Source of the DNA: Candidatus Latescibacterota bacterium
Lineage (GTDB): Bacteria > Latescibacterota > UBA2968
Direction: 5' to 3'
Length of the DNA stretch: 64,000 nucleotides
Assembly: GCA_965116885.1 (NCBI GenBank)
Contig: OZ220741.1
Span: 5,088,001 to 5,152,000, forward strand
Positions 8,606-32,522 of the stretch are shown piece after piece (position 1 is the first letter of the stretch; each line of letters opens with the position of its first letter). Below the pieces are notes generated by a model. The model had not been told where the DNA came from, searched no databases, and saw only the letters and a program-made list of their open reading frames with translations. Position numbers and translations under genes: made by a program.

Positions 8606-11600
8606 ATGAACACAGATGACAATTTCCACGGGGAACGCCCCGGACCGATAGCCTACATGGCTGGCAACAGTGTAGCCGCCAATCTATTGATGTGGGCTAT
8701 CATCGCCGCCGGGCTGGTATCGCTGACCGGACTCGACCGGGAAGCGTGGCCCACCACTCCCTTCTACCATATTGAAGTGTCGATGGCCTATCCCGGCGCC
8801 ACACCGGAGGAGATCGAGGAGTCGATCGTCGTCAAGATCGAAGACCAGGTCAGTGGATTGGATGACGTGAAGGCGGTCAAGTCCGTATCGGCTCCGGGTA
8901 TCGCATCCGTGCGGGTTCAAATGGATTTCGATACGGACATGGCTCGGGCGTTAAACGATATCGAGTCTGCCGTCAATCGCATACAGTCTTTCCCTGCCAG
9001 TGCCGAACGTCCCAGTTTCAAGGAGATGACCAACCGCATGAGCATGATGCGACTCATTGTTTATGGCGATGTGCCCGAGCGTGCGCTGAAGGAATTGGCG
9101 TATCAGATCAAGGATGAACTCACGGCTCTTCCCTCCGTCTCCCAGGTCGAGGTCAGCGGTATTCGGAAATACGAGATCTCTATCGAGGTACCGCTTCATC
9201 GGCTAAGAGCACTTGGACTCACCCTCACCGACATAGCCAACACGATTCGTCGCAGTTCCCTGGACTTGTCTGCCGGCAGTATCAATACCCGGGAATCCCA
9301 GGTGCGGGTCAGGACCCTGGGGCAGAACTACGACCAACAGGATTTCGAAGATATCGTCCTTCTCAGCAGCAGCGATGGCACAGTCCTGCGGCTTGGCGAT
9401 ATCGCCGAGGTTCGCGACGGCTTTCAGGAAACCGACCTGATTGTCCGGCACCAAAATCATCCCGCTGTGTTCGTCGAGGTCTTCCGGGCCGATGGTGAGC
9501 AAGTGATGGATGTCGCCACGACCGTTCGGGAGCACCTGGCGAACGAGGTGATCCCGTCCCTGCCCGACGAGGTGGGCGTCAGCATGTGGAATGACGAATC
9601 CCAGGTCTATGAGGAACGCGCCGATCTTCTCCTCAAGAACGGTATTCTGGGCCTGTTGCTGGTCTTGATCGCCCTGAGCCTGTTTCTCGAAATCCGGCTC
9701 GCGCTTTGGGTCGCCGTGGGCCTCGCCGTTTCGGGAATCGGCGCCCTCGCCATCATGATGGCATTCGACGTGGCGATCAACACCATCAGCCTGTTCTCCT
9801 TTGTCCTCGCCATAGGAATCATCGTCGACGATGCCATCGTCGTGGCCGAGCACATTCAATACGAACGCAAGCGGGGAACACCCGGAGTCACGGCCGCGAT
9901 TCGCGGCGTACGGCGGATCAAGGTGCCGTTGACGTTCGCAGTTCTGACGTCGGTGGTGGCCTTCGTCCCGTTGCTGTTCATTCCCGGCGGCGTCGGTGAG
10001 GTGTGGCGGGCCCTGCCGATCATCATGATCGCCATGCTGCTGGTTTCCCTGGTCGAATCGCTGCTGGTGCTGCCCAACCATCTGTCCCACCTGCACGGCC
10101 CGGAGTGGGTGCCGGCCAATGCCTTCGACCGGTTCTTCGCGCGGCTCCAAGGGCGCGTTGACGCGCTGCTGAACAGGTTCGTCCAAGGCCCGCTGGACCG
10201 GGCCCTGCAGTTCGCCACCGACCAGCCCGCGGTGACGATGTCGGGGGCTGTGGGAATGCTCGTGCTGAGCATCTCCCTATTGCCCGCGGGAATCGTTCCT
10301 ACCACGCTGGCCGCTGACGTGGAGGGGGATATCGCGACGGTCGTCCTGGAGATGCCCGATGGGGCGACCGCTCCGAGGACGTACGAAGTGGCCCAGGAAC
10401 TGGAGGCCGCCGGCCACCGGGTCATCGAACGACTCTCGCGCGACCGGCCCGGGGACGCGCCACCGCTGCTGACCGGCGTAACGGTGACCGTCGGACAGGG
10501 CTCGAGACTCGCGGGCGGGCTCAATCCGGAGCCGACCCTCAATCCGCAAGCCAACATCGCCACCATTGAGTTCAAACTCCTGGGCGCCCAACAGAGAGAA
10601 ATCTCCACCGGAGAGGTCGTGCAGGCATGGCGGGAAGAGGTGGGGGTGCTGCCCTACGTACGCGGCATCACCTTCAGCGGCGAGGCCTTCGACTTGGGCA
10701 ACCCGGTGGAGGTTGTGTTGTCGCATCCGGACCCGGAGCACCTTGCCCGGATTGCAAACTCCGTGGTCAATGGACTCCGCGGGGTGGGAGGCGTTTTCGA
10801 CATACGTTCAGACCACACCCCGGGCATCCCGGAAGTTCAACTCGGGTTGCGGCCAGAAGCGCGAACCCTCGGTCTCACACTCGACGATCTGGCCGGGCAG
10901 GCGCGAGCCGCATTCTTCGGCGCAGAGGCCATCCGGATACAGCGCGGTCGGGAGGAGGTCCGGGTCTATGTGCGCCTGCCCTCCGATGAACGAAAATCCA
11001 TCACCGATGTCGAAGGATACCTGCTCCGTACGCCGGGCGGGGCCGAGGTCCCGGTCCTGAGTGTGGCCTCCCTGAACCCGGGGGTGTCGCCGCCGGCCAT
11101 TCGACGGAAGGACGGCCAGCGCGTCGTCACGGTCACTGCGGACGTGGATGCTTCGGTGATTTCAGGCGACGAAGCCAACGACATCCTGACCAATTCGATC
11201 CTCGCGGATTTGACCACCCTGCACCCGGACCTGACATACAGCTTCGGAGGGGAACAACAACAGCAGCTCGAATCCCTGGATGCGCTGTATCGCGGATTTG
11301 CGATTGCCCTGCTCTTGATCTTCGCGCTGCTCGCCATCCCCCTCCGATCCTATACAAAGCCGTTCATCATCATGGCCGTCATCCCCTTCGGGTTCATCGG
11401 AGTGATCCTGGGGCACTGGGTCCTGGGAGTAGCTCTGAGTGCCGTATCTTTCATGGGTATCTTCGGCCTGAGTGGGGTGGTCGTGAACGATTCCCTGGTC
11501 ATGATCGATTTCATCGATCAGAGAATCGGAGAAGGTACCTTGGCAAGGACGGCGATCGTGGAGGGCGCCAAGGGGCGCTTTCGTCCGATCATGCTCACTT

Positions 11601-11800
11601 CCGTGACTACGTTCCTCGGCTTCACTCCCCTTATTCTGGAACGCGCCATCCAAGCCCAGTTCCTGATCCCCTTTGCCGCCTCGCTCGGTTGCGGCATTCT
11701 CTTTACTACGGCTATACTCATGATGATCGTTCCCGCACTTTACACCATCCATCTGCGTCTGATTGCTTCGCGGGGCCGTTCCGGCGCCGGTACCGGGTAA
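8606..11800 (+). CDS. RND transporter permease subunit (AcrB/AcrD/AcrF family)
   Basis: 1064 aa; YPGATPEEIEESIV, TM4 GIIVDDAIVVAEHI, TM10 GVVVNDSLVMIDFI, RFRPIMLTSVTT. Confidence 0.93.
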   Translation: MNTDDNFHGERPGPIAYMAGNSVAANLLMWAIIAAGLVSLTGLDREAWPTTPFYHIEVSMAYPGATPEEIEESIVVKIEDQVSGLDDVKAVKSVSAPGIASVRVQMDFDTDMARALNDIESAVNRIQSFPASAERPSFKEMTNRMSMMRLIVYGDVPERALKELAYQIKDELTALPSVSQVEVSGIRKYEISIEVPLHRLRALGLTLTDIANTIRRSSLDLSAGSINTRESQVRVRTLGQNYDQQDFEDIVLLSSSDGTVLRLGDIAEVRDGFQETDLIVRHQNHPAVFVEVFRADGEQVMDVATTVREHLANEVIPSLPDEVGVSMWNDESQVYEERADLLLKNGILGLLLVLIALSLFLEIRLALWVAVGLAVSGIGALAIMMAFDVAINTISLFSFVLAIGIIVDDAIVVAEHIQYERKRGTPGVTAAIRGVRRIKVPLTFAVLTSVVAFVPLLFIPGGVGEVWRALPIIMIAMLLVSLVESLLVLPNHLSHLHGPEWVPANAFDRFFARLQGRVDALLNRFVQGPLDRALQFATDQPAVTMSGAVGMLVLSISLLPAGIVPTTLAADVEGDIATVVLEMPDGATAPRTYEVAQELEAAGHRVIERLSRDRPGDAPPLLTGVTVTVGQGSRLAGGLNPEPTLNPQANIATIEFKLLGAQQREISTGEVVQAWREEVGVLPYVRGITFSGEAFDLGNPVEVVLSHPDPEHLARIANSVVNGLRGVGGVFDIRSDHTPGIPEVQLGLRPEARTLGLTLDDLAGQARAAFFGAEAIRIQRGREEVRVYVRLPSDERKSITDVEGYLLRTPGGAEVPVLSVASLNPGVSPPAIRRKDGQRVVTVTADVDASVISGDEANDILTNSILADLTTLHPDLTYSFGGEQQQQLESLDALYRGFAIALLLIFALLAIPLRSYTKPFIIMAVIPFGFIGVILGHWVLGVALSAVSFMGIFGLSGVVVNDSLVMIDFIDQRIGEGTLARTAIVEGAKGRFRPIMLTSVTTFLGFTPLILERAIQAQFLIPFAASLGCGILFTTAILMMIVPALYTIHLRLIASRGRSGAGTG

Positions 11801-11831
11801 TGCACTTCATGATGCAGGGAGGCAGAAACCG

Positions 11832-13865
11832 ATGGCTAATAATACCGAGGATTTGACGCCCCAATCGCTAAGTCTCACCGAAGAGCTCATCCTGATGCTC
11901 CTCAACGAGGAGACTGGCTACTTTCACCAGGTACCCGGCTGGCATTTGAACTGCGCCGTGGTCGGTGCCGTGCTCGCGGAGCTTTCACTCAGATCGCGCA
12001 TCGACACGGACCTGGAATCCCTGTTCCTCGTGGACGAGTCGGAAACGGGGAGACCTACCCTGGACCCCATTCTGAAAGAAATCGCAGCCGAATCTGTTCA
12101 ACGGAACGCCCAGTACTGGATCGAACGGCTCGCTCCCCGTGCGGAATCGATCATTGATTCAGTTCTGGACCGCCTGGTTGACCTGAAGATCCTGGAATAT
12201 CACGACGGTGAATTCTGGACACTGGCTCCTACCGTCTGGCGTGGGGAACTGTCCAGCAAGTCGGAAGAGGGCACTGCAGGCCAGTTCATAAAAACGCGGA
12301 TCAGCAAGGTCATCTTCACCGACGAGATTCCCGATCCGAGAGATGTCATCATTATCTGCCTCGTCAATACCTGCGATGTCTTTCGTTTCATATTCCAGCT
12401 CGACGACGAGGCGGAGGAGCGCATCGAGTTCATCTGCAAGATGGATCTGATCGGCCGCTCCCTGGCCTCTGCGGTCTCTCAGAACCTCGCTGGCCCAGCC
12501 CTCCGACGTCCTGCCCTTGCCAGAAAAATTCCGACGGTTTCGCTGCCCAAGCTGCTGCTGAACCCGCATAGTCGAGACGGCAACCTGAACGCGCTCTTCG
12601 GAAACCTTGCAGAGGAGTACGGTCCGGTGTTCCAGATCCGCCCTCCCTTCTCGAAGCCCATGATCTTCCTGGCCGGGCTCGAGACAAACCGCTGGGTGCA
12701 CAAGCGCGGGCGCATGTACCTGAGAGCCAGGGACTACTTCAGCGACTTCGAGAAGGTCTACGGCGCGTCCGGCGTCCTGCCCGCCCTGGACGGAGCCGAT
12801 CACTTCCGGCTTCGCCGGTCCCTGTCGCCCGCCTATTCTGCCGTGAGGCTGGGAGGGCAACTGGACCAGCTCTACAATCAGGGGCGCAAGTACATGGCGA
12901 GCTTGACTGTTGGGGACTCATACCGCGCCACGTCCATGTGCCGGGAGATGGTGAACGCCCAGCTCTCCCCACTGTTCATCGGCGTCGATACCCAGGACCT
13001 CATGGACGACCTGATGGCGTACAAGGAACGGGCCCTCAGCGTTCACGTCGCCAAGCTCCTGCCCAGATTCACGCTGAACACCCCGGGCATGAGACGCCGG
13101 GCTAAAGCCCTGGACACACTGATGCAGCGGGTCCAGGACATCCATACCCCTGCCCAACGGGCGGACAGCCCGCGGGACCTGGTGGACGATTACCTCAGCC
13201 TGCACGCGAGCGACCCGCAGTTTCTCCCAGAGTCCAACCTGCTGTTCTCCTTTTCCGCGGCCTTGATTGCCAGCGTGTACCTCGGCGATACGTTCAGCCT
13301 CGTAGTCTATGCCATGGTGTCGCAGCCCGACCTCTACGCCAGAATCCAGGCCGAAGCAGATGCCCTGTTCGCCAAGGGAGACCCCGAGAGAGAGGATTTC
13401 ACCCCCGCCAACATTGACGTTACCCACCGCTTCCTCATGGAGTGCATGCGCATGTACCCGATCGTCTCCATGTCCATTCGGAACGTGATGAATACGTGCG
13501 TGGTCGAGGACTACGAGCTGCCCATGGGGGAACGGATCCACATCGCCATGACCGCCACGCATTACATGAGCGAGGTCTTTCCCGACCCCTACAAGTTCGA
13601 CATCGACCGCTACCTGCCGTCGCGCCATGAGCATCGCAGCCCCGGGTACGCCCCGTACGGGCTGGGCACGCACAAGTGTCTCGGCACCCGGTGGATGGAG
13701 CTGCACCTGGCGGCCAACTTGTTGATGCTGGCGCACTACTTCACGATTGAGGTGTCGCCGGCGAAGTACAAGCACAAGCTCCGTTTCAGTCCGTTCCCGT
13801 CGCTGAAACCGAGCAAGAAGCTGAAGTTCCGCATCTCCCAGCAGAGACGGGAGCTGTTCACCTGA
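11832..13865 (+). CDS. GOLPH3/Vps74 (GPP34)-like domain fused to cytochrome P450
   Basis: RBS GGGAGG before ATG 11832. N-terminal 'LSLTEELILMLLNEETG...AVVGAVLAELSLRSRI...LDRLVDLKIL' resembles GPP34. C-terminal P450 has ExxR (MECMRMYP), 'FPDPYKFDIDRY' and the heme motif PYGLGTHKCLG. Confidence 0.85.
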   Translation: MANNTEDLTPQSLSLTEELILMLLNEETGYFHQVPGWHLNCAVVGAVLAELSLRSRIDTDLESLFLVDESETGRPTLDPILKEIAAESVQRNAQYWIERLAPRAESIIDSVLDRLVDLKILEYHDGEFWTLAPTVWRGELSSKSEEGTAGQFIKTRISKVIFTDEIPDPRDVIIICLVNTCDVFRFIFQLDDEAEERIEFICKMDLIGRSLASAVSQNLAGPALRRPALARKIPTVSLPKLLLNPHSRDGNLNALFGNLAEEYGPVFQIRPPFSKPMIFLAGLETNRWVHKRGRMYLRARDYFSDFEKVYGASGVLPALDGADHFRLRRSLSPAYSAVRLGGQLDQLYNQGRKYMASLTVGDSYRATSMCREMVNAQLSPLFIGVDTQDLMDDLMAYKERALSVHVAKLLPRFTLNTPGMRRRAKALDTLMQRVQDIHTPAQRADSPRDLVDDYLSLHASDPQFLPESNLLFSFSAALIASVYLGDTFSLVVYAMVSQPDLYARIQAEADALFAKGDPEREDFTPANIDVTHRFLMECMRMYPIVSMSIRNVMNTCVVEDYELPMGERIHIAMTATHYMSEVFPDPYKFDIDRYLPSRHEHRSPGYAPYGLGTHKCLGTRWMELHLAANLLMLAHYFTIEVSPAKYKHKLRFSPFPSLKPSKKLKFRISQQRRELFT

Positions 13866-13906
13866 CGACTTGGCTCCTTGTGGAGCCAGGGGGGAAATAC
13901 CACGAA

Positions 13907-14941
13907 ATGCGGCTGTGCAAACTATCGAGAGAGCTGAGAGATGCGTACCGGGAATCGGACGTCGCACGTCGAGTGCAGCACTTCGACGGCTGGCTCGACC
14001 GGGCGGCGCTGGAGCCCGGTGGCGCGGGCGGGTACGATCACACGGAAACAGTGAAAGACTATTACGACCTTTGCAGCGGGTTCATGGTGTGGGGCTGGGG
14101 CCAGTCCCTGCACTTCGCGCCCCTCACGCCTCATGAGAGTCTGGAGGAGTCCAAGATCCGGCATCAGCGGCTGATGATTTCCAAGTTGGAACTGCAACAG
14201 GGTATGACGGTGATCGACGTTGGTTGTGGAGTCGGCGCCCCCATGCGCCGCGTCGTCCGTGAGGCTGGTGTCAGGGTTGTAGGAATCAACATCAATGAGA
14301 TCCAGTTGGAAGAGGCGAAGAGGTTGAACGCCGAGGCGGGGCTTGATCACATGGTCGATTTCGAGACGTGCAGCTTCATAGACATGAGCACCATCGAGGA
14401 CGGCACCTTCGACCGGGGTTATGCCATAGAGTCAACGTGCCATGCACCGGACAAGCAACGCGCCTTCGAGGAGGTATTCCGCGTACTGAAACCCGGTGCC
14501 CTGTTCTGGGGGCAGGAAATGTGTCTGACGGGCAAGTTCGATCCGAAGGACGACCGGCATCGGGCCATCAAGGAGGATCTCATGCGCGGCATTGCGCTGA
14601 AGGACATCGCCACCTTCGGGGAAGTGAATCACGCGCTCGAAGCCGCGGGATTCCAAGTCATGGAAGGGATGGACCGGGCGATCCAGGAAGGACCCTCCAC
14701 ACCTTGGTATCAACCCATGGAGAATCGCCATGGGACGGTCGGAAACGCCTTGCGCAGGCTTCCGTGGGGTCGTAAAGCCGTCATCACAGGATCGAAGCTG
14801 GCTGAAGTACTGCGGCTTTTTCCGAAGGGCTCCGCGGAAGTCATCCGACTCCTGGATCGGACCGCGGAGGCTTATATCGCGGGCGGCAAGGCGGGTATCT
14901 TTACGCCGCTGTACTGTTTCTTGGCTCGCAGGCCTCTTTAG
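13907..14941 (+). CDS. Sterol 24-C-methyltransferase (ERG6/SMT-like); alternative GTG start at 13880
   Basis: SMT region I YYDL...WGWGQSLHFAP, SAM motif VIDVGCGVGAP, YAIESTCHAP, RVLKPGA, C-terminal GIFTPLYCFLARRP. Confidence 0.88.
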   Translation: MRLCKLSRELRDAYRESDVARRVQHFDGWLDRAALEPGGAGGYDHTETVKDYYDLCSGFMVWGWGQSLHFAPLTPHESLEESKIRHQRLMISKLELQQGMTVIDVGCGVGAPMRRVVREAGVRVVGININEIQLEEAKRLNAEAGLDHMVDFETCSFIDMSTIEDGTFDRGYAIESTCHAPDKQRAFEEVFRVLKPGALFWGQEMCLTGKFDPKDDRHRAIKEDLMRGIALKDIATFGEVNHALEAAGFQVMEGMDRAIQEGPSTPWYQPMENRHGTVGNALRRLPWGRKAVITGSKLAEVLRLFPKGSAEVIRLLDRTAEAYIAGGKAGIFTPLYCFLARRPL

Positions 14942-14969
14942 GCCCGCCTGGCGCGCCTTCGCGCGGGCC
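14941..14969. terminator. GC-rich hairpin between the convergent SMT and Rieske genes
   Basis: ggcccgc...gcgggcc inverted repeat in the short intergenic gap. Confidence 0.45.
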
Positions 14970-14973
14970 CCTC

Positions 14974-16062
14974 TTAGTCGGAGACCGAGTCCCCACTTCC
15001 CTTCGAAATCGTCGGATCGGGATAGAACTGCCGGCAATACCGGCGGTACTTCCCTATGGGGCCATCTGCCCGACACAGCCTGGGGACAGACCGATACTGC
15101 TTCCTTTCCCAGATCACCACATCCTGCAGGACATCCCGTTTCTGTTGTGACATCAAAATGCGATTCATCAGCCTGTGGCGCAGCATCATCGGCAGAAACC
15201 CCAGACCTGAGATAAATCGCCGGGGCTTGCGGATTTCCCGCATCTGGCTGACCAGTGCAAGATCGATGAGGGTGCCGTCAATGGGGGTTGCGAGTACCCA
15301 CAATCTCGCATTCATATCAATAGTTTTCTCGTGGATCTCGACGAAGGAATAGCCCAGGCCATAGACGTGGGTGATAGCTGAGGTTTCGTACACGAGGTCC
15401 TTTACACCCAGGATCCTGCGAACGCGTTTGAAGTCGAAGCAACTCTTCAAATAGGCACCATCTACCGTTACCGAACCGATCGGATTCACATTGTCGTAAC
15501 CATGCACGTAGCGCAGGTGTCCCAGATCTACAGAGTTCTCTGTGGTTTCCTGGGGATGGCCGCGGAACCGGAGTATGTTGAATCCCAGTTCACCCCACTC
15601 TTGTCCAGTGGTTGGCTCGGCTGGCAAATCCCACTGCGACGGCCGACCGCCGCTCCCGAACCAGGCGAAGACCATGCCGAGAATCTCTCTGGTCTCATAT
15701 ACCTTCAGTTTCGCGGCTCTGGGTGCCGGGGCATTCGGCGTCGCAACGCATTGTCCGGTCGTATCGAACTCAAACCCGTGGAACGGACAAACGAGCCGAC
15801 CATTGTATATCTTCCCACCGACCTCCGGCCCCAGGTGCGAACCCAGGTGCGGACATACCGCGTCGGCCACGCAGACACGGCCTGCATCGTCGCACCAGAC
15901 AACGATTTCTTCGCCCAGCCACGTCTTCTCGATCAGTTTCTCTCGCAGAACGGATTCGCGGCTTGCGACGAAATACCACCCCTCGGGGAAAGGCGGTAGC
16001 GCATCAGCGACATTCCTGATCCGTCGATTAGTTCGCAAGCCTGCTGATTCCGTCAAAGACAT
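14974..16062 (-). CDS. Rieske [2Fe-2S] sterol oxygenase/desaturase (Neverland/DAF-36/KshA-like)
   Basis: FPEGWYFV, CPHLG...CPFHGFEFD, mononuclear-iron motif ENSVDLGHLRYVH, C-terminal DVVIWERKQY...P.LC..DGPI..YRR...QFY. Confidence 0.85.
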   Translation of the reverse strand: MSLTESAGLRTNRRIRNVADALPPFPEGWYFVASRESVLREKLIEKTWLGEEIVVWCDDAGRVCVADAVCPHLGSHLGPEVGGKIYNGRLVCPFHGFEFDTTGQCVATPNAPAPRAAKLKVYETREILGMVFAWFGSGGRPSQWDLPAEPTTGQEWGELGFNILRFRGHPQETTENSVDLGHLRYVHGYDNVNPIGSVTVDGAYLKSCFDFKRVRRILGVKDLVYETSAITHVYGLGYSFVEIHEKTIDMNARLWVLATPIDGTLIDLALVSQMREIRKPRRFISGLGFLPMMLRHRLMNRILMSQQKRDVLQDVVIWERKQYRSVPRLCRADGPIGKYRRYCRQFYPDPTISKGSGDSVSD

Positions 16063-16124
16063 AAAGATCTCACCCTCAGAAGTTTTTTAAATGAGCTTGC
16101 CAGCCAGCTTGTTGCTCGAAAACC

Positions 16125-16161
16125 TATAAGCTATTTACGGCAGGTGGGCAAGGTGAAAGAT
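16125..16161. repeat. Right copy of 37-bp imperfect direct repeat
   Basis: tataagctatttacggcaggtgggcaaggtgaaagat; abuts the stop codon of the lptD-like gene (16163). Minus strand TTGCCC-17 nt-TATAGG faces the Rieske gene. Confidence 0.8.
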
Positions 16162-16162
16162 T

Positions 16163-18514
16163 TTATATCCCAAATCCCCCGCGTCGGTGTTCAAACTTTA
16201 TTTGCGGGATGTCCTTAATATTGATTTTGAAAAAGAACCCCTTATTAAAACCCGCGGGATACCACGAAAACCGAGCCTCCCAACAGTGGAGGTCGCGGTA
16301 AAGCGATAGGCTTTGCGCCGAGATTTTGGCATCGGGCAGAACATCGATATTGATCGAATAGTCAATTCTTATGAATTGGCGAGGATTGATGCCAACATCT
16401 GCTTTGACCCAGGATGTTTTGCTCGTTGTATTGCCGAACCGCCGCATCGCAATATAGTGAGAAAGATTGAATCGCCACGGCTGGCTGGCACCGCCGAAAT
16501 CGCTGTACAGATCGCGTTCAAAGCCAAAATCTGCGCCATATCCCCCCCTGTATCCACCGCCATATCCAGCATCATACCCAGGATCGTATCCATCGGGGAG
16601 AGCGGACTGGACAACCATATTGCCTCGTCCACCTTGACCACCGGAAAAACGAAAATTGGAGGTAATGGTCAAGTTCTGCATGCGCGGATGAAAAAGCGAT
16701 CGCTGGCCTGTACTGTCATAGAGCGTATGGGTCATCGCAATGCGAACATCCACGCGGCGATCTGGTTTGAGAGACGCGCTGGTGCGAAGCGGACGCCATT
16801 TTTGCCTCGGTGCGTCAAAATTGTATCCCATTGACAGATTGAGAGTCGCCAGAGTAAAGCGACGCACATCGTCGTCGCGCTGAGTTTTGAGTTCAAAAGT
16901 ATTGCCGATATTAAAATTTATGCTGCGTCTGGCATCGTCCCATCTGCGATTGCCTCCAAAACCCATTGTTCCCTGAAAAATACTTCCCGATTGGTTGTAA
17001 TTGAAATTGATTCGAGGCTGAAAGCGATGCCGAATACCGCGCAACCGGCCGATTTGCGGTTGGAAAATGCCGTATAATGTCGTGCCCGAAGTCAGTGTCG
17101 CATTGTAAGACGTGCGGCGGGTTGTCGAATCGGTATCGCTATATATAAACTCTTCGCCAAAATTAAAGCCCGGTGTGAGATTCAGCCACCCCATGGGGCG
17201 GTGTTGGCTGTTGACTGTGACGCGGTTTTGAAGAGAGACGCGCTCCGTATTGGGTGCAGGATCGGGATTGCGCGCAAAGTTATTCGACAAGGTACTCGAA
17301 AAACCGTAATAAAAGGCGCGATACCACGGTCCCGTAACAGATGTGGGTTCATTACCTCCAAATATGCGGCGTCTGTTTTGCCGAAAGCTGAGACGAGGAA
17401 AGCCCTGAAAACTATTATTTTTTGTCCTTAGATCGCGGTAATACGTCAGACTACCGTCAATGCTACGCCCGGATTCTGTCCAGCGTTTGTCAAAAGAAAA
17501 ACTGGACCTCAGTTGCCGATTGAGATAGCGATAGAGATTATTGCTATTGCGTCGATCAAAGTTGGTACTGGTCGAAAACTGCCCGCTCCCCCTGATATTG
17601 GTCGTGGCGTTGAGGCGTTGCTGGTGTTGCAAATTAAAGCGCCAATTGTGAGCCGTAGCATCGCCAGAGGTATCGTGGTCGTATCCGATATCCATTGATC
17701 CACTGAATCGATTGCGTCTGGCATAGGCAAATCGCGATTCGAGCAAAAATCCACCGCGCTCACGCAAAGTACTCTTAACCGTGGCATCCCAGTATTCACT
17801 CGGTGCGAAATAATACCCCACATTGTGGACAAAAATGCCATCGCGGCTGTTGCTACCCACACCCGGCGTTAGCAATCCCGATTGCCGCCCGCGCTTGACT
17901 GGAAAAACGAAAAAAGGAACCCAGAAAACGGGAATCGGGCCAATGCGAAAAGTAACAGACCGTCCAATCGCTTTATCGTCTTGCAAAATACGCACATTTT
18001 TGCACAAAAAATCGTAGTGTACATGGTCGCGATCACAGGTACTCAAAGAGAGATCCAGAGCATTCAGCGCTTTTTGACCATCGAGTGCAATGCGGGCACC
18101 GCGATAGTGTTTGCGCTGATGTGACGCGCGTCCATCTCGCACCCTACCGCGTTCTGTATCCAGGTTATAGACCATGTACTCACCCGATATCTTTTCGCTA
18201 CCGCGGGTAAATTGGGGCGGTCCCACAGTTTTTGCTCCGGTGGAATCGGGCAATGCCCGTGCCGTAACGTGCCGCGTGTTTTGATCGTACGTAATATGAC
18301 CGGCTTTGAGTTGTAAATCGCGATAGCGCAAGGTGGCATTACCGATCAATTCGACGCGTCTGGTCTGTACGTAATAAACAACCTCGGCGGCGTCAAATGT
18401 TATGGAATCGCCAGCAGTTTTTTGCGGCAAAACGGGTTGGCACCATCCCGGCGTAATCGCAAATAGCAGGAACAAAACGAGCCACACGGCTTGTGTTTTA
18501 TTACGAGTCTTCAT
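16163..18514 (-). CDS. lptD: LptD-like outer-membrane assembly protein
   Basis: Signal peptide; OstA-like N-domain (ITFDAAEVVY...LIGNATLRY); STCD; GRQSGLLTP; beta-barrel-like C-terminus with RDLHCWE. ATG 18514 preferred over TTG 18550. Confidence 0.8.
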   Translation of the reverse strand: MKTRNKTQAVWLVLFLLFAITPGWCQPVLPQKTAGDSITFDAAEVVYYVQTRRVELIGNATLRYRDLQLKAGHITYDQNTRHVTARALPDSTGAKTVGPPQFTRGSEKISGEYMVYNLDTERGRVRDGRASHQRKHYRGARIALDGQKALNALDLSLSTCDRDHVHYDFLCKNVRILQDDKAIGRSVTFRIGPIPVFWVPFFVFPVKRGRQSGLLTPGVGSNSRDGIFVHNVGYYFAPSEYWDATVKSTLRERGGFLLESRFAYARRNRFSGSMDIGYDHDTSGDATAHNWRFNLQHQQRLNATTNIRGSGQFSTSTNFDRRNSNNLYRYLNRQLRSSFSFDKRWTESGRSIDGSLTYYRDLRTKNNSFQGFPRLSFRQNRRRIFGGNEPTSVTGPWYRAFYYGFSSTLSNNFARNPDPAPNTERVSLQNRVTVNSQHRPMGWLNLTPGFNFGEEFIYSDTDSTTRRTSYNATLTSGTTLYGIFQPQIGRLRGIRHRFQPRINFNYNQSGSIFQGTMGFGGNRRWDDARRSINFNIGNTFELKTQRDDDVRRFTLATLNLSMGYNFDAPRQKWRPLRTSASLKPDRRVDVRIAMTHTLYDSTGQRSLFHPRMQNLTITSNFRFSGGQGGRGNMVVQSALPDGYDPGYDAGYGGGYRGGYGADFGFERDLYSDFGGASQPWRFNLSHYIAMRRFGNTTSKTSWVKADVGINPRQFIRIDYSINIDVLPDAKISAQSLSLYRDLHCWEARFSWYPAGFNKGFFFKINIKDIPQIKFEHRRGGFGI

Positions 18515-21345: not shown

Positions 21346-22761
21346 ATGCTAAAAAAATTGGACAATTTCAAAACGGCCGTTCTACCCGAACGCAAATCGG
21401 GCTTCTGGCAGATGGCGGGACCGGGTGCCATCCTGGTCGGGCTATCCATCGGCGCAGGCGAGATCATTGTGTGGCCTCTTGTAGTCGCTGAGTACGGGGC
21501 GAGCATGATCTGGGCTGCGGTACTCGGTGTATTTTTGCAAATGTGGATCAACTTTGAGGTCGGTCGATGGACAATTGCCACGGGTGAAACAGTATATACG
21601 GGATTTGCGCGTGTGTGGCGCGGTTTTGCACCGCTATTTATTCTAATCACATTATTCTCCTGGATCGCCCCGGGATGGGGACGCGCCTCGGGATTGGCTC
21701 TCAAAGCACTGCTGGTCGGCCCCCAGGGTTGGGGCTCGGACACATTTTGGACCATAATTACATTTATCGGCGTCGCACTGATATTGTTTGGTCCCAAACT
21801 CATTTACAATTCAATGGAAAAAGCCGTTGAACTGATGGTGGCGATTGTCACCATAGGATTAATCATGGTGGCTTTTGCCGTGGGCACGGCAGAAACCTGG
21901 ATCGACCTGGGGAAAGGTATCGCGAACATTGGGTACAAAGATCCAAACATGTCGGTAAAGGCGCTATTCATCGCCATCGTATTTGCCGGCGCTGGAGGAA
22001 CGGCAAATTTGTTTTACACCTTTTATTTGCGCGACAAACACATTGGCATGGGCGCGCATGTGCCAATCATGCAAAATCCATTGCGGAGCCGCACAGAAGC
22101 CATTCCATCAACCGGATTTGTATTTGAAGAAACAGAAGAAAACGCGACGAGGTTCAAGGCCTGGTGGGATTATATAAAAAAAGATCAGATGTTGTTTTTC
22201 TGGGGATTAAACTCCATTACAATGATGCTGTTCATCTTTGGATCGCTCGCAGTCCTGCATCCCCAGGGCATCGTGCCCGCACAAGGCACGCTGATTTGGG
22301 ACGAAGCCGCTATTCTGGGCGAAATTTGGGGCGACATAGGCCGCGTGATCTTTCTCCTGGTGGGGCTGGCAACGCTGTTTGGCACACAACTCGCCCTCGT
22401 GGATGGGGTCTCACGATCAATCGCAGACATTATATATACCAATTTTAAGGGCGCGCAAAAACGAGAACTAAGCTGGTGGTACCTCCTCGTTGCGGGAATA
22501 TGGATTGTGGCCGGATGTGTGATCACTTTTGTGATGGAACAATACGGTGTAAGCGAATTGGGCTTTCTGTTTAATGCGGCCTACATGGGCGGATTTGCCA
22601 TGGCGATTTACGTGCCACTGATGCTGTACATCAATTATCGCTATTTGCCAAAAACCGCCCGACCGGGCAAGGAATGTACCGCGATGATGGTAATTGCATC
22701 ACTGGTATATGTAGTATTTGCAATAGCCTGTATTTTGTGGGAAGTGGGTATTTTGGCTTAA
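21346..22761 (+). CDS. Nramp/APC-superfamily transporter
   Basis: Multiple TM helices; N-terminal GPGAILVGLSIGAGE and 'GRWTIATGE'. Confidence 0.75.
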   Translation: MLKKLDNFKTAVLPERKSGFWQMAGPGAILVGLSIGAGEIIVWPLVVAEYGASMIWAAVLGVFLQMWINFEVGRWTIATGETVYTGFARVWRGFAPLFILITLFSWIAPGWGRASGLALKALLVGPQGWGSDTFWTIITFIGVALILFGPKLIYNSMEKAVELMVAIVTIGLIMVAFAVGTAETWIDLGKGIANIGYKDPNMSVKALFIAIVFAGAGGTANLFYTFYLRDKHIGMGAHVPIMQNPLRSRTEAIPSTGFVFEETEENATRFKAWWDYIKKDQMLFFWGLNSITMMLFIFGSLAVLHPQGIVPAQGTLIWDEAAILGEIWGDIGRVIFLLVGLATLFGTQLALVDGVSRSIADIIYTNFKGAQKRELSWWYLLVAGIWIVAGCVITFVMEQYGVSELGFLFNAAYMGGFAMAIYVPLMLYINYRYLPKTARPGKECTAMMVIASLVYVVFAIACILWEVGILA

Positions 22762-25523: not shown

Positions 25524-25642
25524 GCACCTACATACTTATCATATTAACAGAACAGGGCTTCGCATCTTGCAGAAATCCCTGTTCTTTGTATTTTAGGGGA
25601 TGGCTTTTAGAAAATGCAAACACGCCAACCGAAGGAATTTTT

Positions 25643-27085
25643 ATGAGCATGTGTGACACGGAGAAATCCGTTGACGAGATGGACGCCCGGGAACGGGCAC
25701 GCTATATCGACGATCTGACGCCCAGAGGTGGTTTATATACCGAAGTACAGCGCGAGGTGCATCCGCAATCGAACAGTTCGTGGCGCGTATCGCCCGACCC
25801 GTGGTGGCTACCTCCCCCGGTTCTATCACACCTCGAGGCATTGGGACAGCATCTCTATCAGTTTTACAAAGCACTGAATCTATTGTATTCGCAAAGTATA
25901 AGGGGTATTCAGCCCACATGGGTCTCGCGGTATCTGGATCTGGGCAAATCGGAAGAAGTGATCAAATTTGGGCAAATGAGCCGATTCAAAAGCCATGTAC
26001 CCCTCGTGATTCGGCCCGATGTGATACCCACGCGATCGGGAATGATTGCGACGGAATTGGATTCGGTGCCTGGTGGAATTGGATTTACGGCAAGCCTGGC
26101 AGAGCGATATGCCAAACTCGGCGATCAAATTGTGGGCGGCGCAAATGGGATGGTCACTGGATTTGCACAGATGGTCCGTGACGTTGCCGGCACAGATGCG
26201 CCTGTGTTGGGCGTGGTGGTCTCGGAAGAAGCATCGGCTTATCGGCCTGAAATGTCGTACCTGGGCGACCGATTAAATGCCGCCGGTCTGGAAACTTATG
26301 TCATTGGACCCGAAGAACTATCTTTTGTCGAAGATGGGCTATTTATCGATGGGGCAAATGGTCGCCGACGCATAGACGTGATATACAGATTTTTTGAGTT
26401 ATTCGATTTGAGGAACCTGCCCCAAATAGATTTGATTTTATACGCAGTACGCAAAGGGCTCGTCAAGATCACACCCCCCTTAAAAGCATATCACGAAGAA
26501 AAGATGATGATGGCCCTATTCCACCATCCCTTGCTATCGAATTTCTGGCATCAACACCTGGGCAAAAAATCCGTGGCCTTTTTGCGGCAAACCTTTCCCA
26601 AAACGTGGATCTTAGACCCTGCACCTTTGCCTCCCCATGGCGTTATTGCCAGCTTGGAAATCGCCGGTCAATCCTTTTCCGATTGGCGTGTACTGGGGCA
26701 CCTGGGGCAAAAACACCGACAACTGGTCATCAAACCCTCGGGATATTCTGAAATGGCCTGGGGCAGTCGCGGTGTAACCATTGGACACGACATGGCCGAG
26801 CGAGATTGGCAAGGCGTGATCGACGAGGCATTACGCGCCTTTGAGCAAACGCCCCATATCATGCAGGAATTTCACAATGGCGCGACTTTTTCTGTATCGT
26901 ATTACAATTACGAAACCGATCAAATCGAAACATTCAGAGGACGGGTGCGATTACAACCCTATTATTTTGTCATTAAAGACAAAGCAGTGCTCTCGGGCTT
27001 ACAGGCGACAGTCTGTCCAGCAGACAAAAAAATATTGCACGGAATGGTGGATGCAGTGGTGATACCTGGCGCGGTTAAGAAGTGA
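25643..27085 (+). CDS. Glutathionylspermidine-synthase-like / circularly permuted ATP-grasp protein
   Basis: IRPD...TELDSVPGG, DVIYRFFELFD, EEK, PKTW, VIKPSG...WGSRGV.IG, IMQEF, RVRLQPYYF. Confidence 0.65.
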   Translation: MSMCDTEKSVDEMDARERARYIDDLTPRGGLYTEVQREVHPQSNSSWRVSPDPWWLPPPVLSHLEALGQHLYQFYKALNLLYSQSIRGIQPTWVSRYLDLGKSEEVIKFGQMSRFKSHVPLVIRPDVIPTRSGMIATELDSVPGGIGFTASLAERYAKLGDQIVGGANGMVTGFAQMVRDVAGTDAPVLGVVVSEEASAYRPEMSYLGDRLNAAGLETYVIGPEELSFVEDGLFIDGANGRRRIDVIYRFFELFDLRNLPQIDLILYAVRKGLVKITPPLKAYHEEKMMMALFHHPLLSNFWHQHLGKKSVAFLRQTFPKTWILDPAPLPPHGVIASLEIAGQSFSDWRVLGHLGQKHRQLVIKPSGYSEMAWGSRGVTIGHDMAERDWQGVIDEALRAFEQTPHIMQEFHNGATFSVSYYNYETDQIETFRGRVRLQPYYFVIKDKAVLSGLQATVCPADKKILHGMVDAVVIPGAVKK

Positions 27086-31140: not shown

Positions 31141-32364
31141 TCATGGATCACCTCTAACCGCAGTCTGCACCACCATGCCTTCAGTTGCAAACTGAATCCC
31201 GCCTATGACGACCGCCTGTCCGGCTTCCAGAGTGCCGGTTACGAACACCTTATCATCGGAACGCTGAAGGACGCGCACCGGGACGATGGTCAATAGTTTG
31301 TCATCGCGCACTGCCCAAATCTCGTTGCCTGGCCTGAGTGCTGACCGTCGCAAGATGAAGTACCGGTCTGGGATGATCCCCTCAATTCGTACTTTCACAA
31401 ACTTACCCACAAGAAGGGGCGGGCCAGGATCAGCATTTGCATCATCGCCATCTGCTCCAGCCCAGGTGCCGCTTGCAAAGGGGTCCGGAACGCGTACGAT
31501 AGCGTTGATGGTACGCGTCTGTTCGTCCAGAGATGCCTCCGCTCGGTCCACGTAGCCCTCCCAGGCGTAGCTCCTTTCGCCGTATTCAGCAATGACGCGA
31601 GCCTTGACCCGCCTGTCTCCGTCGCCCGCTTCCAACTCCCATAGGCCGGGGATGAGAACCGCGTTGGCGTCGGACAGGGGAACCACTACTTCGACAGCGT
31701 CGGCCGCGTAAAGTCGCCCTACGCTCTGGCCAGCTACCACGAATTGCCCCACATCTATCGACTCGATCCGCACGATTCCGCTGAAAGGCGCGCGCACCTC
31801 TGTGCGGGACAAAGCCAACTCAGCGTCAGCGAGCATGGCACTATCTCTGCCTAAAGCGGCTTGGGCAGCCTCGAGCTGAGGCTGCCGCAATACCAGAGGG
31901 CCAGCCTCCTTCAGCGACGTGCTATCCGCCTGACGGCGTTTATATTGCGCGTACTCAGCGCGTGCGATCCGGGACTCTTCCTCCTCCTGGAGAAGTACTA
32001 CCTGCTGTGCGGCCACGTTGGCCTGTGCCTGCTGAACTCTGTTGCGGTAGTCAGCGTCCTCAATGCGGAAGATAACCTGCCCTTTGCGAACGCGTCCGCC
32101 ACTCTGAAAGGCCGGATCCACCCAAACAACCTTACCATTGATTTCGGCAGCGACATCTATCTCTGCGACAGGTCGAACCGTCCCGGCTCCGTACACGGGG
32201 ATTGCACTGGCACCAGCCACTGCAGGAGTTGTGGTTACGAAGGGAATCTGGGTGGGAAGAGGCCGAAGTTCCGGCTCGGGCTTCAGCCAGACCATAAGGC
32301 TGGCAAAAAACAAGGATGTGAGAAGAACGGCACCGGCCATGAGTAAGTTTCTTCCTCGATTCAT
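31141..32364 (-). CDS. RND periplasmic adaptor subunit (membrane fusion protein), orphan
   Basis: N-terminal TM; GTVRP...AEINGKV; helical hairpin; RTEVRAPFSG; IDVGQFV; DEQTRT. GC-rich relative to flanks. ATG 32364 preferred. Confidence 0.9.
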   Translation of the reverse strand: MNRGRNLLMAGAVLLTSLFFASLMVWLKPEPELRPLPTQIPFVTTTPAVAGASAIPVYGAGTVRPVAEIDVAAEINGKVVWVDPAFQSGGRVRKGQVIFRIEDADYRNRVQQAQANVAAQQVVLLQEEEESRIARAEYAQYKRRQADSTSLKEAGPLVLRQPQLEAAQAALGRDSAMLADAELALSRTEVRAPFSGIVRIESIDVGQFVVAGQSVGRLYAADAVEVVVPLSDANAVLIPGLWELEAGDGDRRVKARVIAEYGERSYAWEGYVDRAEASLDEQTRTINAIVRVPDPFASGTWAGADGDDANADPGPPLLVGKFVKVRIEGIIPDRYFILRRSALRPGNEIWAVRDDKLLTIVPVRVLQRSDDKVFVTGTLEAGQAVVIGGIQFATEGMVVQTAVRGDP

Positions 32365-32522
32365 CTCTTTTCTCTTTTCAGTACAGGCTGATTCGATGTG
32401 CGGCTTGGCATTGATAAGCCCCACAAAAAAGGGAATACTTATCCCCATACACCATAGCATACACTTTTACAAAATGCAAGAATTTTTAAATTTGATTAGT
32501 ATTTAGAATATCTTGAGGTTTT

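Follow-up and report, generated by a model that had tools for sequence, protein, structure and literature searches.

A GPP34-cytochrome P450 fusion in a Latescibacterota genome and its recurrent gene cassette, a candidate for sterol-type lipid tailoring and export

Proteins that combine a GPP34 domain with a cytochrome P450 were described from sponge symbionts by Ferreira et al. in 2025 under the name "GPP34_L" (Microbiome 13:4, PMC11706023). In the available text of that paper, 656 of the 663 long GPP34 proteins are of this form, which is reported as exclusive to sponge symbionts and occurs in 92.6% of 54 sponge Gemmatimonadota. GPP34 is proposed there to be a secreted effector that binds host phosphatidylinositol 4-phosphate (PI4P) and blocks phagosome maturation; the flanking-gene analysis in the same text concerns the short form only, and the word "sterol" does not occur in the main text. 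GOLPH3 is described as an adaptor that holds enzymes at the membrane (PMC13408441). Sponge symbionts also carry de novo sterol clusters with genes for a squalene monooxygenase-oxidosqualene cyclase (SMO-OSC), CYP51 (ERG11), ERG24, a sterol methyltransferase (SMT), sdmA and sdmB (Brown et al. 2023, PMC10070321, supplementary file 4), and in vitro, SMTs from symbionts accept desmosterol and 24-methylenecholesterol as methylation substrates (PMC10070321). Here we analyzed one GPP34-P450 fusion, encoded on the forward strand of a 64,000-nucleotide stretch of a Candidatus Latescibacterota bacterium (assembly GCA_965116885.1, contig OZ220741.1, positions 5,088,001 to 5,152,000), which as a whole is called the window, and compared it and its surroundings with these systems.

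We give about an even chance to the explanation that the fusion is a cytoplasmic, sterol-type lipid-tailoring P450 that works in an export cassette and carries a PI4P-independent docking or adaptor domain. In such a system, the C-terminal half would be a functional class-II-like P450 oxidizing a hydrophobic, sterol-like (triterpenoid) lipid. The gene would belong to a horizontally shared cassette with a resistance-nodulation-division (RND) exporter, joined in many genomes by a membrane fusion protein (MFP) and an outer-membrane factor (OMF), a sterol-type C-methyltransferase, and a KshA-like Rieske oxygenase. Together these proteins would tailor the lipid and pump it out of the inner membrane. 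The substrate would most likely be a sterol obtained from the sponge, and endogenous squalene is the chief other candidate. The GPP34 domain, having kept the GOLPH3/Vps74 fold and a hydrophobic hairpin and lost the PI4P pocket, may pack against the basic P450 and, without need of PI4P, serve for docking or as an adaptor, bringing the enzyme to the membrane or next to a partner; it would stand where microsomal P450s have their anchor.

The fusion gene (11832..13865, +) is one uninterrupted frame of 677 codons, giving 677 residues plus a stop. The longest frame at the locus opens at TTG 11763 and would give 700 residues. ATG 11832 is the better start, because a Shine-Dalgarno-like GGGAGG, read from the sequence (11817..11822, +), lies 9 nucleotides 5' of it and 17 nucleotides past the stop of the upstream RND gene, and because all 120 fusion homologs among the matches listed are 664-686 residues long and span 97-100% of the 677-residue query. 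The Pfam family GPP34 (PF05719) matched residues 15-216 (11874..12479, +) over profile positions 1-199 of 201 (E 1.2e-28, 101 bits, cut-off 29.1), and p450 (PF00067) matched with E 4.1e-34 and 118.6 bits (cut-off 22.8). The P450 domain covers 12525..13862 (+), approximately residues 232-677. Its ExxR motif (E537 and R540, nucleotides 13440-13451) and heme cysteine (C616, codon at 13677-13679) were invariant in all 49 members of an alignment of full-length fusions with 24-92% identity.

Both Pfam domains were present in all 120 clusters among the matches listed (75-99% identity). The source genome, closed as a single 5.56-Mb contig and 98% complete, encodes three GPP34-P450 fusions and one stand-alone GPP34 protein. 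The fusion is not an assembly artifact, as is evident from the 120 listed clusters together with the two further paralogous fusions in the same genome. An exhaustive search returned 378 proteins at E<=1e-30, counted as representatives at 50% identity, and the best 150 of these included dozens of full-length fusions of 650-690 residues and 24-58% identity. In a scan of one genome per species, relatives were encoded in 558 stretches; the 80 loci kept from these came from metagenome-assembled genomes (MAGs) labeled as Latescibacterota, Palauibacter/Gemmatimonadota, Longimicrobiales, Dehalococcoidia, Bacteroidota, Gamma- and Alphaproteobacteria, Spirochaetia, Acidobacteriota, Acidimicrobiales, and Binatia. 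The focal fusion has relatives of 91-97% identity both in genome records labeled Candidatus Latescibacterota and in records whose protein names point to Gemmatimonadota or Gemmatimonadaceae (locus L023). Such identity across labels makes inconsistent MAG taxonomy more likely than recent transfer between phyla. The first-pass annotation of this DNA had read the gene as one uninterrupted 677-residue frame with a GPP34-like N-terminal part and a P450 with ExxR and the heme cysteine, all of which is borne out by the translation, the two Pfam matches, the invariant residues, and the profile and fold matches given below. It had allowed that the N-terminal part might have no GPP34 match or that the fusion might be unique to this assembly, and neither is the case. 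The architecture is not novel, having been published in 2025 (PMC11706023), and the focal gene is a real, ordinary member of the GPP34_L family.

Directly upstream of the fusion gene lies one for an RND efflux permease of the AcrB/MdtB type (8606..11800, +; 1064 residues; Pfam ACR_tran E 3.2e-160), whose stop codon is separated from the fusion ATG by 31 nucleotides. Its best PDB matches were multidrug RND pumps (E 2.4e-71). An assignment to a hopanoid- or sterol-specific type of pump was not supported, as generic multidrug pumps were matched in PDB and NCBIfam. Downstream is a sterol-type S-adenosylmethionine-dependent methyltransferase, referred to as the SMT (13880..14941, +; CMAS E 4.8e-18; Sterol_MT_C E 2e-14, 53.9 bits, cut-off 21.7), which gave the only Sterol_MT_C match in the genome. 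Its start is 15-40 nucleotides past the fusion stop, depending on whether the alternative ATG at 13906, behind AGGGGGG, is used. The spacing of the RND, fusion, and SMT genes is thus operon-like (31 nucleotides with a Shine-Dalgarno sequence, then 15-40 nucleotides). No solved SMT structure close to this protein was found in the PDB, where its best matches were generic methyltransferases. Convergent with the SMT gene is one for a Rieske oxygenase with a KshA-type C-terminal domain (14974..16062, -; KshA_C E 1.5e-21, Rieske E 2.1e-17), and the best PDB matches of this protein were 3-ketosteroid 9alpha-hydroxylase KshA (E 5.5e-23). It was not assigned as SdmA, since the corresponding equivalog scored 32.7 bits with a cut-off of 600. 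Further out, the window contains housekeeping genes (LptD, Dtd, Maf, RodZ, PriA), two open reading frames (ORFs) of 471 and 499 residues that matched no Pfam family at E<=0.001 (21346-22761, + and 25586-27085, +), and a gene for an HlyD-type MFP (31141-32460, -), about 17 kb from the RND gene, whose product is 58% identical to the adaptor of a cassette elsewhere (locus L016).

In order to compare gene contexts, loci with a full-length fusion were classed by which of the paralogs of the source genome they resembled more closely, giving 35 focal-type loci (window excluded) and 20 other-type loci, and neighbors were counted by tblastn within about 8 kb of the fusion. An RND gene was nearby in 20 of 35 focal-type and 3 of 20 other-type loci (27-41% identity), an SMT gene in 18 of 35 and none of 20, and a Rieske gene in 19 of 35 and none of 20. 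At least one of the three occurred at 26 of the 35 focal-type loci, and all three together at 12, compared with none of the other-type loci. The reverse was true of Sulfotransfer_3 genes, which were found at 10 of the 20 other-type loci and at none of the 35 focal-type ones, apart from one match of 25% identity in L042. A stricter and unbiased census by ORF clustering, with 36 focal-type (window included) and 22 other-type loci, gave the same pattern for RND (19 vs 2), SMT (15 vs 0), Rieske (15 vs 0), and sulfotransferase genes (0 vs 11). It also counted an HlyD-type adaptor (MFP; 13 vs 1), an OMF (12 vs 0), and a flavin amine-oxidase-like gene (5 vs 0). The frequency of adaptor and outer-membrane factor genes indicates that the fusion follows a complete tripartite pump in many genomes. 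Focal-type loci with an SMT gene were labeled as Latescibacterota, Palauibacter/Gemmatimonadota, Longimicrobiales, Dehalococcoidia, Gammaproteobacteria/Pseudomonadales, and Rhodospirillales. Among 24 domain-only loci (L071-L074, L076-L086, L088-L095), no P450 of the fusion family was found near the stand-alone GPP34 gene, a result that is a by-product of a filter at >=40% of the query and not of a dedicated search.

The P450 half was compared with solved structures by fold and by sequence. Foldseek returned CYP184A1, Methylococcus CYP51, and CYP120A1 (E about 4e-16 to 1.5e-15, target template-modeling (TM) score 0.80-0.84, about 20% identity), and the best PDB sequence match was Methylococcus CYP51 (E 6.5e-18), which covered residues 406-651 only. 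P450 nomenclature places the threshold for a family at about 40% identity. A CYP51 identity was rejected on the basis of the approximately 20% identity, the partial match, the lack of an NCBIfam CYP51-type match, and the lack of a cyclase in the genome. The best NCBIfam rows were far below their cut-offs (e.g., pentalenene oxygenase, 62.6 bits vs 800). The I-helix of the focal clade reads A-S-V-(gap)-Y-L-G-D-T, with D-T about three residues out of register, so that the canonical AGxDT with its acid-threonine pair is absent; A-G-L-D-T is found in most other fusions and is the motif of the sulfotransferase-linked clade. This may mean that the focal clade has an atypical proton-delivery route or catalyzes a reaction other than simple hydroxylation.

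A full-length AlphaFold2 model (49-row alignment) had a mean predicted local distance difference test (pLDDT) of 89.4 and a predicted TM score (pTM) of 0.87, with low confidence only at residues 1-10, 141-150, and 223-227. Because Foldseek returned only P450s for this model, the GPP34 domain was folded alone (34-row alignment, pLDDT 83.4). The top eight PDB matches of the domain model were then all GOLPH3 or Vps74 (E 8.3e-9 to 7.2e-6, TM 0.59-0.71), and the ninth reached only E 0.077. Profile and fold searches were needed because a single-sequence search of the PDB was weak, giving only Vps74 at E 0.066; a profile of 34 bacterial GPP34 domains matched both GOLPH3 (3KN1; E 5e-14) and Vps74 (E 8.9e-14).

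GOLPH3 contacts PI4P through W81, R90, R171, and R174, and the R90L substitution abolishes PI4P binding (PMC3596250; PMC13408441). According to a sequence-profile alignment that runs beside an indel and was made without structure superposition, none of these four residues is kept in the focal protein. W81 corresponds to P35, which precedes by two residues a tryptophan (W37) shared by 22 of 34 domains, and R90 to V44, at a position that is Arg or Lys in 0 of 34 domains and 0 of 49 fusions. The equivalent of R171 is E105 (Asp or Glu in 29 of 34 domains), and that of R174 is I108, a position with Arg in 19 of 34 domains and Ile or Val in the focal clade. The domains are also acidic, with a median net charge of -14 (range -23 to -7) and a median isoelectric point (pI) of about 4.7 in the 49 fusions, and values of -16 and 4.5-4.6 in the focal protein. 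The P450 halves of the same proteins are basic (median pI 9.24; focal pI 9.19). GOLPH3 inserts a beta-hairpin, which is hydrophobic and spans residues 190-201, into the membrane, and binds the basic tails of its clients in an acidic groove formed by D247, D258, D262, and E159 (PMC13408441). A beta-hairpin is predicted by AlphaFold2 at focal residues 121-131, where F128 and W129, the equivalents of F194 and L195 by profile alignment, are bulky hydrophobic residues in 32 of 34 and 34 of 34 domains, respectively. The segment equivalent to D258-D262 is acidic (position 192 in 33 of 34 domains, position 196 in 25 of 34), and the D247 equivalent is Asp in 10 of 34 domains and Gly in 20.

Directly after the GPP34 domain comes a proline-rich hinge (consensus IPxxxGLPxLGN in the alignment of 49 fusions). 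In eukaryotic microsomal P450s the membrane anchor sits just N-terminal to such a proline-rich hinge. The focal protein begins with a polar stretch (MANNTEDLTPQS) that leads directly to the first helix of the GPP34 domain, without a signal peptide. A Kyte-Doolittle scan found a 19-residue window of >=1.6 in 35 of 49 fusions; in the focal protein the hydrophobic windows fall on helices in the cores of both folds (H169-180, I-helix, L-helix), and the scan thus shows no transmembrane anchor. When the two halves were split at the linker, a complex prediction scored 0.53, compared with 0.00 for the best of three controls, with at least 91% contact agreement between runs and a partner pLDDT of at least 76. 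In calibration this mark was attained by 2 of 215 mismatches and by 116 of 157 solved pairs, with only 18 of the 157 at scores of <=0.60. The test lends weak support to specific packing of the halves in the predicted complex. The pTM of 0.87 suggests that the model holds them in a fixed arrangement.

These results partly support the function that the first-pass annotation had assigned to the domain, namely a membrane-targeting or lipid-presenting module in place of the transmembrane anchor of a eukaryotic sterol P450. The location agrees with this, as the domain stands in an anchor-like position before the hinge and retains the hairpin hydrophobics. A PI4P mechanism like that of GOLPH3 is not supported, given an R90 equivalent that is never basic, an R171 equivalent that is acidic in 29 of 34 domains, and an isoleucine for R174 in the focal protein; electrostatic binding to anionic lipids is likewise not supported, given the median charge of -14 and pI of 4.7. 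As for "sterol P450", the sterol-type gene context (SMT, KshA-like Rieske, and RND genes) speaks for the term in its general sense and CYP51 itself has to be given up.

The source of a substrate was assessed from the biosynthetic genes of the genome. No squalene or oxidosqualene cyclase was found in the source genome, either with PF13243 or by tblastn with three cyclases from cassette-bearing genomes (no match at E<=1e-3). HpnC (324.8 bits, cut-off 250.45), HpnD (309.5, cut-off 278.6), and HpnE (407.4, cut-off 283.05) are encoded next to each other (L099:6947-10354, -; about 823.9-827.4 kb on the contig), approximately 4.3 Mb from the cassette. Judged by these genes, the bacterium could make squalene and would have no cyclase to use it, which leaves a host sterol or endogenous squalene as the substrate. 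The lack of a cyclase makes a host sterol the most likely choice. Among five other cassette genomes, two Dehalococcoidia had a squalene-hopene cyclase only (749 and 785 bits, TIGR01507), and one gammaproteobacterium had an oxidosqualene cyclase (OSC)-like gene behind a FAD monooxygenase gene (722 bits with TIGR03463, below the cut-off of 851). Of the remaining two, one had no cyclase and the other a fragment of 34.7 bits. On the basis of this survey of the source and five other genomes, the cassette mostly occurs without sterol synthesis. In the genome with the OSC-like gene (G003), the FAD monooxygenase and the cyclase share an open frame of 1205 residues (L098:2386-6000, -), which suggests a squalene monooxygenase-OSC fusion and matches the gene id shared by ERG1 and ERG7 homologs of sponge-symbiont clusters in supplementary file 4 of Brown et al. 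(PMC10070321).

Eleven studies of sponge metagenomes have runs containing the 7.5-kb cassette, and parts of it occur in six metatranscriptome runs of three studies. Contigs of four metatranscriptome libraries (three studies) covered 22-29 of 30 bins of the cassette, with some pieces 99-100% identical. Contigs from RNA libraries crossed both the junction of the RND and fusion genes (11486-11902 and 11759-11945) and that of the fusion and SMT genes (13714-13997 and 13825-14350).

The two paralogous fusions of the source genome have 661 and 655 residues, are 35-36% identical to the focal fusion, and lie at about 4.410-4.413 Mb (L011:8162-11295, -) and 0.600-0.604 Mb (L012:9539-12642, +), spans that include a partner gene. 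In both cases this partner is a Sulfotransfer_3 gene that overlaps the 3' end of the fusion, a pairing that suggests a module in which a lipid is hydroxylated and then sulfated. Upstream of the L012 pair are genes for a methyltransferase, a GFO/IDH/MocA oxidoreductase, and a PhyH dioxygenase, and downstream is an inositol-monophosphatase-family gene, possibly for a 3'-phosphoadenosine 5'-phosphate phosphatase. The L011 pair is bracketed by genes for two large leucine-rich-repeat proteins (L011:5740-7878, - and L011:11690-14407, -), which are themselves bracketed by near-duplicate genes for sigma-54 activators with Reg_prop/Y_Y_Y sensors (L011:2150-5368, + and 14840-18055, +). The layout resembles that of a block which has been duplicated or inserted. 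Another operon of the genome (L014:9852-16937, -; about 3.162-3.169 Mb) contains genes for an MpaB/Lcp-type oxygenase, an MFP, an RND pump, and a stand-alone P450, with MMPL, LolA-like, and sulfatase genes at its flanks. The P450 has 475 residues and a PPGP-type hinge at its start, without an anchor, and was rejected as a GPP34-less relative of the fusion (23% identity over 126 residues).

Several observations weigh against a sterol-tailoring export cassette with a membrane-docked P450. None of the RND, SMT, and Rieske genes was found at 9 of the 35 focal-type loci, and although some of these lie on short contigs, four (L025, L036, L038, and L041) have full 8-kb flanks. Pfam annotation of the window revealed no redox partner gene in the cassette, and the non-canonical I-helix means that the chemistry of the focal clade may be atypical. 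In the window, neither an MFP nor an OMF gene is adjacent to the RND gene, and the best OMF homologs in the genome are only 29-30% identical; the pump may be an orphan or work with distant partners. Since the genome can make squalene, the substrate need not be a sterol. The strong acidity of the GPP34 domain, as calculated from its sequence, would not favor anionic bacterial membranes, and the conserved hydrophobic residues of the hairpin could be buried in the model. The RNA-library contigs may derive from contaminating DNA, and a contig that spans two genes is no proof of a single transcript.

Four other explanations were weighed. The proposal of Ferreira et al., in which the protein is secreted and binds host PI4P to block phagosome maturation and the P450 half is an accessory, is in line with the enrichment of the family in sponge symbionts, including 92.6% of the 54 sponge Gemmatimonadota (PMC11706023), with the detection of the focal locus in sponge metagenomes, with the two eukaryotic-like leucine-rich-repeat proteins beside one paralog, and with a fold that is that of the PI4P effector GOLPH3. 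We regard it as highly improbable for this protein. The residue whose loss (R90L) abolishes PI4P binding in GOLPH3 (PMC3596250; PMC13408441) has a basic equivalent in 0 of 34 domains and 0 of 49 fusions, the R171 equivalent is mostly acidic, and in the focal protein none of the four contact residues aligns and the domain has a net charge of -16. Moreover, the polar N-terminus lacks a signal peptide and the hydrophobic windows are core helices, VirB4 (type IV) and VipB (type VI) gave no match in the genome (type III was not searched), and the gene lies between those for the RND pump and the SMT with operon-like spacing. A role in detoxification, in which the enzymes modify toxic hydrophobic metabolites of sponge or microbial origin, the RND pump expels them, and the sterol annotations are mere family resemblance, would agree with the multidrug AcrB/MdtB type of the pump, the presence of a second, unrelated MFP-RND-P450 operon in the genome, and the failure of cyclase searches to find sterol synthesis genes. 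However, the trio of an SMT with Sterol_MT_C, a KshA-like Rieske protein, and a P450 of the focal clade recurs across labeled phyla, as would be expected of a defined pathway more than of broad detoxification, and the pairing of the other clade with a sulfotransferase (10 of 20 loci, and both in this genome) is a pattern of biosynthetic tailoring. Detoxification is thus very unlikely in our assessment.

That the cassette acts instead on endogenous squalene or another acyclic isoprenoid, which would be methylated and oxidized by the three cassette enzymes (SMT-like protein, P450, and Rieske oxygenase) before the pump exports the product, is unlikely. HpnC, HpnD, and HpnE score above their cut-offs and are encoded adjacently, the genome lacks a cyclase, and two of the five other cassette genomes have a squalene-hopene cyclase only. 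Botryococcus is known to have enzymes of the SMT family with squalene as their methylation substrate. Evidence to the contrary comes from the distance of about 4.3 Mb between hpnCDE and the cassette, the Sterol_MT_C domain of the methyltransferase, and the resemblance of the Rieske protein to KshA, which acts on the steroid ring. In addition, symbiont SMTs of the same family methylate desmosterol and 24-methylenecholesterol, although those tested are from different, de novo clusters (PMC10070321). The last alternative concerns the GPP34 domain, which may not be a membrane module; instead it may regulate the basic P450 from within the same chain or offer a docking platform on it, for instance by gating the face for the redox partner or by recruiting a protein with a basic tail. 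The opposite pI values of the two halves in 49 fusions (medians of about 4.7 and 9.24), the recognition of basic client tails by the acidic groove of GOLPH3 (PMC13408441), the acidic residues at groove-equivalent positions 192 (33 of 34) and 196 (25 of 34), and the weakly supported interface (0.53 vs 0.00) together with the pTM of 0.87 are consistent with this. The D247 equivalent is Asp in only 10 of 34 domains and Gly in 20, the complex prediction gave no interface residues, and the conserved hairpin hydrophobics would also fit membrane contact. We consider it quite unlikely as a replacement for the membrane role. The two roles are not mutually exclusive.

Returning to the preferred explanation, that of a sterol-type lipid-tailoring P450 in an export cassette, it is a tentative possibility that the cassette is horizontally mobile and lets symbionts that cannot make sterols remodel those of their host, by side-chain alkylation and oxidation here and, with the paralogous module, by hydroxylation plus sulfation, and release the resulting compounds through export, thereby adding to the unusual biomarker sterols of sponges, with GPP34 as a PI4P-independent adaptor that places an enzyme at the membrane and is a prokaryotic counterpart of GOLPH3. 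If this is true, it would be the first function for bacterial GPP34 proteins. If symbionts without a cyclase alkylate or oxidize host sterols, this would bear on the debate about how reliable 24-isopropyl and related steranes are as biomarkers of sponges and thus of animals. The sole published idea for the fusion is a secreted, PI4P-binding effector, and the sequence evidence speaks against it and for sterol-type lipid tailoring and export. As the fusion itself is already catalogued, the possible importance of the locus lies in its gene context, which suggests a concrete role for a large and uncharacterized bacterial family. A literature search that did not extend to subscription journals found no link of GPP34 proteins or the fusion to sterols.

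Among the known systems, the closest is GPP34_L, from which the focal protein does not differ in architecture. The two share a length of about 660-690 residues, the sponge habitat, a spread over many phyla, and a short stand-alone GPP34 in the same genome. The available text of that paper (PMC11706023) does not mention the contexts with SMT, Rieske, and RND genes or with sulfotransferase genes, nor that the PI4P residues have been lost. The sterol clusters of Brown et al. are similar in that an ERG6-type SMT is encoded beside oxygenases in sponge symbionts (PMC10070321), but the focal cassette has no cyclase and no SdmA equivalog, and its P450 is about 20% identical to CYP51, so that only the SMT feature is shared. 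The terms "P450", "GPP34", and "Rieske" do not occur in the main text of PMC10070321, nor do P450, cytochrome, Golgi, efflux, Rieske, or Gemmatimon in its seven readable supplements, which list the tested SMTs as gene ids and percentages and not as sequences.

With regard to the P450 half, the Methylococcus CYP51-ferredoxin protein (PDB 6MCW/7JJ1) is the best PDB sequence match. P450 BM3 (CYP102A1) is another soluble P450 fused to a second domain, and BM3 heme domains are among the structural neighbors (E about 2e-15). Unlike in BM3, the partner domain of the focal fusion is N-terminal and has no match to a cofactor-binding family, for which reasons the GPP34 domain is not considered to be a redox partner. 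With GOLPH3 and Vps74 (PDB 3KN1, 9QPQ, and 2ZIH), the domain has in common the fold, the profile family, the hydrophobicity at F194/L195, and part of the acidic groove. It differs in that W81, R90, R171, and R174 are not kept, in the absence of the 10-residue insert of GOLPH3 that contains W161, and in its much greater acidity. Bacteria have no Golgi, and the "client" of this GPP34 domain is an enzyme in the same chain and not one that it recruits.

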